This document shows positions 286-1,013 of a stretch of 5,866 bases of DNA, piece by piece. The notes under the pieces were generated by a model. It ran no database searches, had not been told where the DNA came from, and saw only the letters and a list, made by a program, of their open reading frames with translations. The DNA is from a virus. Taxonomy: Duplodnaviria; Heunggongvirae; Uroviricota; Caudoviricetes. The position numbers and the translations under genes were made by a program. The stretch is taken from IMG/VR virus record IMGVR_UViG_2660237951_000003, positions 1 to 5,866 of that record, one strand, 5' to 3'. Every line of letters begins with the position of its first letter. Positions within the stretch are counted from its first letter, which is position 1.

Positions 286-353
286 TTGCCCATCAGCAGG
301 ACGCACTACTCACCAGGGCGGTGAATATACAACGATTCGAATATGAATCTACG

Positions 354-368
354 GCGCTGACAAAGCGC
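354..368 (+). promoter_or_regulatory. boxB-like RNA hairpin (nutL-type N-utilisation site)
   Basis: GCGCT-GACAA-AGCGC, a 5-bp GC stem with a GACAA pentaloop. From memory this is identical to the boxB RNA used with the P22 N peptide. It sits in the leader about 260 nt upstream of the N-like gene. No clear boxA (CGCTCTTTA-like) is seen next to it. Confidence 0.55.
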
Positions 369-629
369 AATAACCAAAGTGAACTTTGGGGTGTGGTGAA
401 GCCAGCTAGTCACTGGCAAGTGCTTACCTACTGTTGAGCGGTGAAGCGCTCCCAACGCTAGCAATAGCGTGGACGAGATGGGGAGCCGCGGGCGATAAGG
501 CCGCCATAACGCGCACGTTGTCGCATGGAAAAATCACTGGGGTGCCGGTTATACCCCTCCGAATGAGACTCAACAAGCTGGAGCTAGACTACCAGCCACC
601 ACACCACCAAAGTTCATCAGGAGGTCTAT

Positions 630-1013
630 ATGACACGCAGAACTCAGTTCAAAGGCAATTCACGTTCTCGTCGTCGTGAGCGTTTAAAGGCAAAGGCATT
701 AGCTAACGGCGTACTGGCCCGCGAAGAAGCAATAAGTTCAGAAGTATTACACCGCCCTACTCTAAGCAGAGCGCAGATTCAGGCTAAAGGTACTCACGAA
801 ACGCCTGAGCGCATAGAAGACGCTAAGCCAATTAAGTTCATGGCACAGGACGTGATCTGGCAACAGAAAGAATACAGACGCAATCTGGAGCGAGCGGCCA
901 TTGTGTACGCGAATGAGTTTGGACATAAGCAACCAGAAACTGGTGTATGTCTTCCAAACGTAGCCATTTACGCGGCAGGCTACCGGAAATCAAAACAACT
1001 GACAGCGAGGTAA
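630..1013 (+). CDS. N-like transcription antitermination protein (P22 gp24 / lambda N family)
   Basis: ATG at 630 with AGGAGG (619-624) at 5-nt spacing. N-terminal arginine-rich motif GNSRSRRRERLKAKALANG resembles the N-protein ARMs (lambda TRRRERRAEKQAQWKAAN; P22 GNAKTRRHERRRKLAIER, both from memory). Size of 127 aa and position just downstream of a boxB hairpin fit. Confidence 0.6.
   Translation: MTRRTQFKGNSRSRRRERLKAKALANGVLAREEAISSEVLHRPTLSRAQIQAKGTHETPERIEDAKPIKFMAQDVIWQQKEYRRNLERAAIVYANEFGHKQPETGVCLPNVAIYAAGYRKSKQLTAR

Follow-up and report, generated by a model that had tools for sequence, protein, structure and literature searches.

An H-19B-type nutL–N module and a long-range leader helix with an exchangeable interior at the probable start of an early-left operon in a lambdoid prophage

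The stretch of DNA described here, positions 354-1013, lies in a window of 5,866 nt (the whole stretch of DNA that was analysed) and contains a boxB hairpin, a long leader and an open reading frame (ORF) of 127 codons, which are preceded by a promoter-like site and followed at a distance by a cluster of terminator-like hairpins. The features of this region are as follows, in order of position.

257-285, + strand: predicted pL-type early-left promoter found by promoter scan, with -35 TTGCCA, a 17-nt spacer and -10 TAAAGT
292, + strand: putative transcription start, the A of ATCAGCAGGACGCACT, 6 nt past the -10 hexamer and at the head of a conserved initial sequence
311-323, + strand: leader hairpin CACC-AGGGC-GGUG, the positional homologue of CACC-AUGAA-GGUG, which in lambda stands just before boxA
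325-333, + strand: the boxA slot of lambda and P22, after the CACC..GGUG hairpin, which reads AUAUACAAC here and holds no boxA
334-349, + strand: nutL spacer hairpin GAUUC-GAAUAU-GAAUC, a dyad symmetry typical of H-19B-type nut spacers
354-368, + strand: boxB GCGCU-GACAA-AGCGC (GCGCTGACAAAGCGC), predicted binding site of the arginine-rich N terminus of N
374-389, + strand: local hairpin CCAAAG-UGAA-CUUUGG, which competes with the long-range helix for CUUUGG
379-398, + strand: 5' arm of the long-range helix, GUGAACUUUGGGGUGUGGUG, including a GU-rich boxC-like tract and homologous to lambda +83..+96
399-596, + strand: interchangeable leader interior ("filler", 198 nt) in its Sf6/HK544 version, the longest of the 31 versions found
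597-617, + strand: 3' arm of the long-range helix, CACCACACC-A-CCAAAGUUCAU, with A606 bulged, the "CA-rich tract" of the initial annotation
619-624, + strand: Shine-Dalgarno sequence of N, AGGAGG, conserved in all H-19B-type leaders
630-1013, + strand: N antitermination protein, 127 aa (Pfam PF25694, phrog_271)
1735-1938, + strand: three terminator-like hairpins with T runs (1735-1754, 1881-1898 and 1919-1938), upstream of recombination genes

The site at 257-285 is the sole sigma-70-like site returned by the promoter scan on the + strand of positions 1-2100, and it is embedded in an operator region of the H-19B/Stx1-phage type, where positions 37-401 are near-identical to H-19B, AU5Stx1 and mEp506. 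From A292 onwards the sequence reads ATCAGCAGGACGCACT, a conserved sequence with which the lambda pL transcript opens. It comes after the lambda pL promoter in lambda, HK544 and HK97, and lambda, HK97, Sf6, the EDL933 Stx2 prophage and P22 all have it downstream of operator/promoter sets that are unrelated. Because 257-285 is the only promoter-like site and the conserved pL initial sequence begins at A292, the boxB hairpin probably lies inside the pL transcript. The elements stand in the order promoter (257-285), boxB (354-368) and N (630-1013), with N as the first pL gene downstream of nutL, and the synteny of this pL-start region agrees with that of H-19B, HK97, lambda, Sf6 and P22.

It had been proposed in the initial annotation that the 127-aa ORF carries an arginine-rich motif like those of N proteins, and such a motif, GNSRSRRRERLKAKAL, does occupy residues 9-24 of the protein. 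Comparison with the N families points the same way, as the ORF matches the Pfam profile PF25694 (N_peptide) over residues 2-127 with 57.5 bits and E=2.1e-15, the curated cut-off being 27.9 bits, and it also matches phrog_271 ("anti-termination protein N-like") with E=3.1e-39. No residue distinguishes the protein from N of the EDL933 Stx2 prophage (933W), of Min27 and of Stx1-phage (100% identity); it is 98.4% identical to HK97 N, and identical at 124 of 127 residues to H-19B N, with which it shares the same N terminus. P22 gp24 resembles it in the arginine-rich motif, GN(A/S)(K/R)(T/S)RR(H/R)ER, and in the C-terminal 30 aa, which are 67% identical, but differs in its length of 100 aa and in a middle part that BLASTP does not align.

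The hairpin at 354-368 is, as had been suggested, a P22-type boxB, being identical at 15 of 15 positions to boxB of P22 nutL and equally to that of H-19B nutL, and it is a stem-loop with the GNRA-like pentaloop of a nut site. Since a perfect 5-bp stem with a 5-nt loop occurs 8 times on the + strand of the 5,866-nt window and is not rare per se, the significance of this boxB lies in its identity and context, not in the hairpin alone. Among 226 N leaders a GACAA loop is accompanied by a GNSRSRRRERLKAKAL-type N terminus in 80 of 80 cases, with other loop types going with other N termini, which supports the earlier view that hairpin and protein are a matched pair. On these sequence comparisons, the ORF at 630-1013 is assigned as the N antiterminator and the hairpin as its predicted cognate boxB, of the P22/H-19B type. 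By analogy with the 98% identical H-19B N, the protein would be expected to carry out nut- and NusA-dependent antitermination, and the terminator cluster at 1735-1938, downstream of which lie genes for Rad52-like, SSB and anti-RecBCD proteins, is likely to provide the first targets of the N-modified polymerase. H-19B N and nutR serve as an experimental antitermination system in two papers (PMC3526286, PMC4499122).

Positions 292-393 of the transcript are H-19B nutL base for base, spacer dyad and boxB included. The spacer hairpin at 334-349 is present in both the minimum free energy (MFE) and centroid folds; its stem is retained in Salmonella relatives, where the loops differ, and in nutR of this family GGAC-AUUC-GUCC takes the corresponding place. 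On the 3' side of boxB, a GU-rich boxC is found as GGGGUGUGGUG at 388-398, which aligns with GGGGUGUGUG of lambda, a sequence that we take to be the lambda boxC. Nut sites are stated to include boxC in one report (PMC2724277).

A boxA (CGCUCUU(U)A) 5' of boxB is a further mark of a nut site, and none is present here. In 292-353 the best match to CGCTCTTTA has 4 mismatches in 9 positions, which 87% of shuffles equal and which is therefore chance level; no match with two or fewer mismatches occurs in the same interval, and searches upstream of boxB with several consensus forms of boxA gave chance-level matches only. The mismatch counts against CGCTCTTTA elsewhere are 0 for P22, where this perfect boxA stands 13 nt upstream of boxB, 1 for lambda and 1 for VT2-Sakai, and CGCTCTTTT is retained at nutR in a prophage that has this leader, the form seen in nutR of the family being CGCT(A/C)TTTT. 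The lack of a recognisable boxA had thus been seen correctly, and it is unusual when set against lambda and P22, but H-19B nutL is equally without one. As nutL here is identical to that of H-19B, the missing boxA is a published property of the H-19B system, linked to its known biology, and no new anomaly. H-19B, which was studied by Neely and Friedman (1998, 2000) and in the Sen laboratory, has an N with published lower host-factor requirements, and boxA, NusB and S10 are reported to be dispensable in its case.

The resemblance to the H-19B group, which comprises the Stx1 phage H-19B itself and likewise 933W (as the EDL933 Stx2 prophage record) and HK97, extends over nutL at 292-393, N, the operator/promoter region and the lack of boxA at nutL, and the sole difference is in the leader interior, which is 83 nt long in H-19B and 120 nt long in the EDL933 Stx2 prophage and HK97, whereas the 216-nt Sf6/HK544 version is found here. 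The leader at 369-629 is GC-rich, as had been noted (54.4%, compared with 47.9% for the whole window), and its RNA is structured, with a z-score of -4.3 for the fold of 292-650 against shuffles. Several hairpins had been noted in it; the interior at 401-596 taken alone has no excess structure (z=-0.33, with 68 of 200 shuffles as good), so that its hairpins are what composition yields. One of them, GGGGT/ACCCC, does exist, but at 539-557 and not at 548-566.

The excess stability of the leader comes from a single long-range helix, not from internal hairpins, and the region that it spans, 379-616, has a z-score of -4.49 against shuffles. In this helix, which reaches from the boxC region to just 5' of the Shine-Dalgarno sequence of N, 379-398 pairs with 597-617 in 20 bp interrupted by the bulged A606, and it is present in both the MFE and the centroid fold. 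In a set of 62 distinct arm pairs, pairing holds for 92.2% of cells, compared with 36-41% when the arms are slid against each other, and in 11 of the 19 helix pairs both partners vary. At 0.436, the covariation score exceeds the 0.06-0.12 of the slid controls and is reached by none of 500 shuffles; the CUUUGG/CCAAAG part of the helix is invariant across the arm pairs. The shortest version of the helix (leader L025) has about 12 bp and a 5-nt closing loop. All leader types have the local hairpin at 374-389, and in P22 a single compensatory swap has taken place in it.

An equivalent helix, pairing +83..+96 with +186..+201, appears in the MFE fold of the lambda N leader, where CUUUGG and GGUGUG.. 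face ..CACACC-A-CCAAAG with the same bulged A. Lambda also has the same order of elements (NUTL, RNase III-sensitive hairpin, N ribosome-binding site), the same first 16 nt of the transcript, and similar spacing to boxB and to the Shine-Dalgarno sequence, while it differs in its boxB loop (GAAGA, compared with GACAA here), in the specificity of N, in having a boxA, and in its filler, to which the one found here is unrelated and twice as long. The P22 leader helix has the same architecture (UUUGG-ACUGGCG / CGCCAGU-A-CCAAA).

In lambda, N is reported to autoregulate its own translation and RNase III to relieve this regulation (Steege 1987; Kameyama 1991; Wilson 1997, 2002, 2004). The sites at which RNase III reportedly cuts the lambda leader, +88/89 and +197/198, would leave a 3' overhang of 2 nt over the conserved CUUUGG/CCAAAG pairs, and their counterparts here would lie near G390 and A609. 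In one study, lambda nutL is placed about 200 nt upstream of N, the RNA between NutL and N is described as highly structured, and N together with Nus factors at NutL is described as repressing N translation (PMC5725501). Two others present RNase III as a positive regulator of lambda N mRNA that processes the N gene leader (PMC9032294, PMC5371410, citing Kameyama 1991, Steege 1987). From the homology of the two helices we infer that 379-398/597-617 corresponds to the lambda N-leader hairpin whose cleavage by RNase III relieves the autorepression of N translation, although it is in lambda alone that the cleavage and its effect on N translation are known. The post-transcriptional control of N that had been suggested for this leader would fit, through the known lambda mechanism rather than a new one, as the CA-rich tract is the 3' arm of a helix that is RNase III-sensitive in lambda. 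This reading is weakened by the shortest helices, as about 12 bp is short for an RNase III substrate, and conservation of the helix might serve another end. The local hairpin at 374-389, as a competitor for the 5' arm, also counts against it.

Under the mechanism proposed here, transcription would start at about A292 and the first 100 nt would form an H-19B-type nutL, made up of boxB and two small hairpins and lacking boxA. Through its arginine-rich N terminus, N would bind the GACAA-loop boxB on the nascent RNA and, with NusA, would let RNA polymerase pass the terminators at 1735-1938 and reach the recombination genes, probably, like H-19B N, without the boxA/NusB/S10 module. The RNA between nutL and the ribosome-binding site would close as the 20-bp helix, looping out the 198-nt filler and setting the nutL-held N-Nus-polymerase complex beside the N ribosome-binding site, where N would repress its own translation. 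Cutting of the helix by RNase III would then uncouple nutL from the N message and relieve the repression. What the present analysis itself establishes are the sequence identities, the helix with its covariation, the lack of boxA and the exchange of modules, while the parts of the scheme that concern the start of transcription, the Nus factors used, cleavage by RNase III and autoregulation are carried over from work on lambda and H-19B.

The interior of the helix behaves as a separate module. The filler at 400-595 is found with 99.5% identity in 19 phage records with lambda-type nutL and N, Sf6 and HK544 among them, and the filler of the EDL933 Stx2 prophage (933W) and HK97 is likewise found with both N types. 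The sequences of HK544 and HK106 are said to stem from a 2007 study by Degnan. At least 31 unrelated fillers, from 16 to 216 nt in size and one of them tRNA-like, occupy this slot in N leaders. No Rfam match was obtained when 4227 families were compared with the whole window at E<=1, no PHROG family matches the filler interior, and the six near-identical variants of the filler that are available contain no compensatory pairs. The filler is a swappable module without a visible sequence-specific role, and the conserved arms double as recombination joints. Within the N-leader helix lies a hot spot for the exchange of modules, with dozens of unrelated fillers that are common to differing N specificities and are occasionally tRNA-like; no description of such a hot spot was found in the searchable literature.

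The 354-1013 stretch very probably opens the early-left (pL) operon of a mosaic lambdoid E. coli prophage, with an H-19B-type nutL, N, and a leader helix that closes off a swappable filler. Its early-left control region combines published modules: nutL of H-19B, an N of the 933W type and the leader filler of Sf6 and HK544. As an H-19B-type nutL–N unit for antitermination it is ordinary and already well studied, and the value of the region itself, a textbook lambdoid control region, is small.

A different role for the helix can be envisaged, in which it is a processing slot whose interior is freed by RNase III (or by RNase P for tRNA-like fillers) early in infection as a discrete, stable and structured RNA with a function in trans, such as that of an sRNA, a tRNA mimic or a decoy. 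The slot is likened here to rrn operons, in which boxC and its complement flank 16S rRNA. This analogy is also drawn in one paper (PMC8632103), and the E. coli rrn leader (boxB-boxA-boxC), as described there and in another (PMC2724277), is indeed similar in having a nut-like element followed by a GU-rich boxC that pairs with a distant complement, and an RNase III stem around a large insert; the rrn insert, however, is functional 16S rRNA and the rrn system is boxA-dependent, whereas a short filler without evident function and no boxA are found here. Some other fillers do resemble tRNA: filler L061 scores as a tRNA (Rfam RF00005, 34.8 bits with a gathering threshold of 29, E=1.8e-4; tRNA-Pro by ARAGORN), with the conserved arms as acceptor stem and the bulged A plus CCA as discriminator plus CCA, and in fillers L018 and L116 a canonical T arm, GCUGG-UUCGAYU-CCAGC, directly abuts the 3' arm, with compensatory changes between the two. 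The filler studied here retains the same 5-bp stem as L018 and L116 (577-581/592-596), but it has no excess structure, no Rfam match at E<=1 and no covariation among its six variants, and, unlike L061, the window has no ARAGORN tRNA gene or tRNA-like cloverleaf; relaxed ARAGORN thresholds over all 92 leaders added only weak, unreliable calls. The 31 fillers are moreover unrelated and some are just a loop of 16-17 nt, and therefore a filler is not required, while the known prophage anti-sRNAs map elsewhere, to the PR' moron site, according to Tree et al. (PMC4104026). Excision of the present filler as a trans-acting RNA is accordingly considered improbable. The same low probability is given to a broader proposal, by which the covarying boxC helix would serve lambdoid N leaders generally as a cargo slot. 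At least 31 unrelated structured inserts, some tRNA-like and the 198-nt insert being one cargo, would be excised from it by RNase III or RNase P as discrete RNAs at the very start of infection and would act in trans, for instance by mimicking tRNA or as decoys that counter host defences.

Still less probable, and by a clear step, is the reading implied in the initial annotation, by which the CA-rich tract is a free single-stranded translational enhancer or a regulator-binding site just upstream of the Shine-Dalgarno sequence. CA-rich leaders can enhance translation, and the tract, correctly placed at 591-609, does lie 10-28 nt upstream of the Shine-Dalgarno sequence; it is not free, however, but fully paired in the MFE fold and likewise in the centroid fold; in 62 leaders its sequence changes together with that of the 5' arm, and other versions of the 3' arm (CAUCGCAUC, CUGUAUUCACC and CGCUUUC) are not CA-rich. 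A by-product of the analysis is thus that the tract is accounted for as one strand of the conserved helix, whose covariation is unusually clean.

A small leader protein encoded by the ORF at 434-679 (81 aa) is scarcely credible and this ORF was rejected as a gene, for although the frame is open and its counterpart in phage Bas106 is annotated as a 60-aa hypothetical protein in one record, it has a TTG start and no Shine-Dalgarno sequence, overlaps the start of N, varies in its end point by context, would be shifted in frame by the 1-nt deletion of the known variant L075, and has no Pfam-style or PHROG family, the other 30 fillers being unrelated. In a collection of E. coli genomes, no complete genome covers 80% or more of the window, and the exact leader combination at 290-640 is present in 6 of 5426 genomes.

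The window represents the early-left operon of an E. coli lambdoid prophage or phage, and its N region is a known system, in which a nutL-N module of the H-19B/933W type (H-19B being the Stx1 phage whose nutL-N system has been studied experimentally) is combined with a lambda-type N-leader helix and with the filler, or stretch enclosed by that helix, of Sf6 and HK544. The initial annotation, a matched N-type antiterminator and boxB with a structured leader and no recognisable boxA, was correct as an observation and essentially right in its interpretation, for a system already known.

Features of the N region and of one comparison leader
257-285, + strand: sigma-70-like promoter, TTGCCA-17-TAAAGT, the only such site on the + strand of 1-2100
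311-323: hairpin in the 292-650 fold
334-349: spacer hairpin GAUUC-GAAUAU-GAAUC in the 292-650 fold
354-368: boxB, GCGCTGACAAAGCGC, 15/15 identical to boxB of P22 nutL and H-19B nutL
G379-G398 with C597-U617: long-range helix of 20 bp with A606 bulged, in the 292-650 fold
630-1013: N ORF, followed by small ORFs
1735-1938: terminator-like hairpin cluster, 3' of the small ORFs
369-450, - strand, of IMG/VR contig IMGVR_UViG_3300011794_000001 (lambdoid N leader L061): tRNA-like element

Downstream of the terminator-like cluster lie genes for a Rad52-family recombinase, an SSB and a P22-type anti-RecBCD protein. None of the complete E. coli genomes searched holds at least 80% of the window, and the exact combination at 290-640 is found in 6 of 5426 of them; the window is a mosaic of modules in wide circulation. 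The two ORFs between N and the cluster (1014-1241 and 1303-1746) encode a 75-aa product that matches phrog_5305, of unknown function (E=6e-37), and a 147-aa product with no match in Pfam or PHROG.

As had been proposed, the ORF at 630-1013 encodes an N protein: over residues 2-127 its product scores 57.5 bits with Pfam PF25694 ('Transcriptional antitermination N peptide'; cut-off 27.9 bits, E=2.1e-15), and it also matches phrog_271 (E=3e-39). The same sequence (100% identity) is found as N in the EDL933 Stx2 prophage (933W), in Min27 and in many Stx1 phages; identity to HK97 N is 98.4%, and the experimentally studied N of H-19B agrees at 124 of 127 residues, including the whole N terminus, whereas only the C-terminal 30 residues align with P22 gp24 by BLASTP (67% identity, E=3e-10). 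The hairpin at 354-368 is indeed a P22-type boxB, and its match to N was examined by recording, for 226 N leaders taken from reference phages and from two viral-contig scans, which boxB hairpin accompanies which N-terminal sequence of N (first 26 residues). All 80 occurrences of a GACAA-loop boxB are accompanied by an N terminus of the ...GNSRSRRRERLKAKAL type, while GAAA-tetraloop boxBs pair with ...GSAAGRRRERRAA... and GAAGA- or GAAAA-loop boxBs with lambda-type MDAQTRRRERRAEKQ... N termini. As the loop type tracks the N-terminus type, the pairing of N with boxB is backed comparatively, beyond mere resemblance. In Salmonella phage SPN9CC (L009), where nutL sits about 95 nt 5' of N, the protein is 86% identical to that of the window and has the N terminus ...GTSRARRRERLKAKAL; this type goes in five of five cases with a different boxB, GCUC-CGUCAAC-GAGC (4-bp stem, 7-nt loop), and may represent natural variation in specificity within the P22/H-19B class.

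The promoter at 257-285 would place the transcript start at about A292, and from A292 onwards the sequence reads ATCAGCAGGACGCACT, which is how the lambda pL transcript begins. This sequence is kept, directly behind promoter/operator sets that differ widely, in lambda, HK544, HK97, Sf6, Bas106, the EDL933 Stx2 prophage and P22, and in HK97 authentic lambda pL is joined to an H-19B-type nutL at exactly this start point. Because of the promoter site and the kept initial sequence, boxB probably lies inside the transcript, some 62 nt behind its predicted 5' end. Just 5' of the operator region, at 37-56, ACCCGGCC-ACCG-CGCCGGGT forms a strong terminator-like hairpin with a T run behind it. This hairpin is kept in H-19B, AU5Stx1 and mEp506, and occupies the position that the HK544 annotation gives to Timm, which terminates the repressor-operon transcripts.

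No recognisable boxA accompanies boxB, since the best match to CGCTCTTTA in 292-353 has 4 mismatches and 87% of shuffles are equally good; the shorter and rrn-type consensus forms likewise gave only chance-level matches there. This had been called unusual, which holds in comparison with P22 nutL, where boxA is perfect, and with lambda and VT2-Sakai, each with 1 mismatch; in the slot 3' of the conserved CACC-loop-GGUG hairpin, lambda has CGCUCUUAA and the window AUAUACAAC. It is not, however, peculiar to the window, as H-19B nutL equals window 292-393 base for base. The H-19B nutR retains a boxA-like CGCTATTTT (L007 5630-5680), and a CX12 prophage with an identical leader (L255 1560-1625, - strand) has a nutR with CGCTCTTTT, a spacer hairpin and boxB UCGCUGACAAAGCGA, so that the common type, boxA-like CGCT(C/A)TTTT, GGAC-AUUC-GUCC and this boxB, confines the loss to nutL. 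In H-19B, BOXA, NusB and S10 are reportedly dispensable for N, and NusA required; the absence of boxA at nutL is real and already explained by H-19B biology. In CX12 (E. coli, NZ_CP073719.1; L255 4840-5223), RefSeq annotates no N gene 3' of the leader; the only entry there is a pseudogene of 23 codons, 'regulator, missing N-terminus'.

The leader is GC-rich as described (54.4% at 369-629, against 47.9% for the window), and its CA-rich tract lies at 591-609, while the GGGGT/ACCCC hairpin, placed at 548-566, is actually at 539-557. Structure is present in the fold of 292-650 (z=-4.3), which comprises boxB, the spacer hairpin, the 311-323 hairpin and the long-range helix; the internal hairpins are what composition gives by chance, as the fold of the interior by itself (401-596) is equalled by 68 of 200 shuffles (z=-0.33), whereas the helix element (379-616) has z=-4.49. 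The leader signal is thus the long-range helix, with the CA-rich tract as its 3' strand. Lambda has it too, with GGCUUUGGGGUGUGUG (+81..+96) pairing with CACACACC-A-CCAAAGC (+187..+202) in its MFE structure and an identical bulged A, as does P22 (UUUGG-ACUGGCG / CGCCAGU-A-CCAAA). Among 62 distinct arm pairs from the 226 leaders, aligned without gaps (in the rare leaders with several CTTTGG candidates, the best-pairing one was chosen), 92.2% of helix cells form standard pairs, against 36-41% with the 3' partner slid by 1-3 columns. Both-sided changes occur at 11 of 19 pairs, and the covariation score is 0.436 (0.06-0.12 in slid controls; reached by 0 of 500 shuffles). The lower six pairs, CUUUGG/CCAAAG, are invariant, and the upper eight take forms such as GGUGUGUG/CACACACC, GAUGCGAUG/CAUCGCAUC, GGUGAAUGCAG/CUGUAUUCACC and GAAGGCG/CGCUUUC.

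The interior is swappable filler, exchanged at the conserved arms. Window 400-595 recurs at 99.5% identity in 19 phage records, among them Sf6, Sf101, HK544, HK446, HK633, mEp213, mEp043, Bas106 and vB_EcoP-720R6; in Sf6, HK544 and Bas106, the records inspected, both nutL (with boxA and a GAAGA-loop boxB) and N are of the lambda type. Conversely, H-19B, the EDL933 Stx2 prophage, HK97, AU5Stx1 and mEp506 have the window's nutL and N but shorter, unrelated interiors. The 86 distinct interiors cluster into 31 versions, unrelated to one another and 16-216 nt long; that of the window is the longest, and it occurs 17 times with lambda-type and 5 times, the window included, with H-19B-type N, and the EDL933 Stx2 prophage/HK97 version is likewise found with both. 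The shortest versions (L025, L021, L122) are bare 12-bp bulged hairpins with a 5-nt loop, so that filler is not needed for the role of the helix. The helix as a covarying clamp round a hypervariable slot is a modest comparative extra.

That the leader encodes a small protein (ORF 434-679) is unlikely, as this ORF starts with TTG without a Shine-Dalgarno sequence, overlaps the N start, belongs to no family found and would be frame-shifted by the 1-nt deletion in variant L075. It is quite improbable that the filler is a functional RNA excised from the leader, although the fillers of some other leaders resemble tRNA. The L061 filler passes the Rfam gathering score for tRNA (34.8 bits, threshold 29, E=1.8e-4) and is called tRNA-Pro(agg), 82 nt, by ARAGORN; its acceptor stem is made up of the conserved arms, and its discriminator and CCA of the bulged A with CCA. 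In the L018 and L116 fillers (versions C09 and C27), a canonical T arm, GCUGG-UUCGAYU-CCAGC, directly adjoins the 3' arm, and three stems show compensatory changes between the two fillers. The window filler, however, has no Rfam or ARAGORN match and no structure above chance (401-596), and its variants carry no informative variation. The window retains the same 5-bp stem as this T arm (577-581/592-596), but with a 10-nt loop. A free CA-rich translational element is contradicted by the pairing and covariation, and in many homologues the 3' arm is not CA-rich at all.

For the swappable-filler helix, a role as in the lambda N leader would be expected by homology. There, a hairpin sensitive to RNase III lies between nutL, which comes first, and the N ribosome-binding site. 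The lambda cuts, which we take to be at +88/89 and +197/198, fall on the computed numbering on opposite strands of CUUUGG/CCAAAG, with the 2-nt 3' overhang that RNase III would leave, so these positions are self-consistent. The homologous sites in the window would be G389^G390 and C608^A609, and cleavage at the latter would give an N message beginning 10 nt 5' of the Shine-Dalgarno sequence. In lambda, N and Nus factors at NutL, about 200 nt upstream, are described as repressing N translation (PMC5725501, citing Wilson 1997, 2002), the RNA between nutL and N as highly structured (PMC5725501), the leader as processed by RNase III (PMC5371410, citing Steege 1987), and N expression as raised by RNase III (PMC9032294, citing Kameyama 1991). 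The GU-rich 5' arm corresponds to what is termed boxC in the nut literature (PMC2724277), and in rrn operons boxC is given as one strand of the RNase III stem round 16S rRNA (PMC8632103).

A local hairpin at 374-389, CCAAAG-UGAA-CUUUGG, uses the same CUUUGG that pairs with 607-612 in the long-range helix, so that the two pairings are mutually exclusive. Every leader type has an equivalent, UCAAAGC-AGAAG-GCUUUGG in lambda and, with a compensatory swap, CCAAAC-GAGAUUG-GUUUGG in P22, and this hairpin could act as a switch or as an intermediate in co-transcriptional folding.
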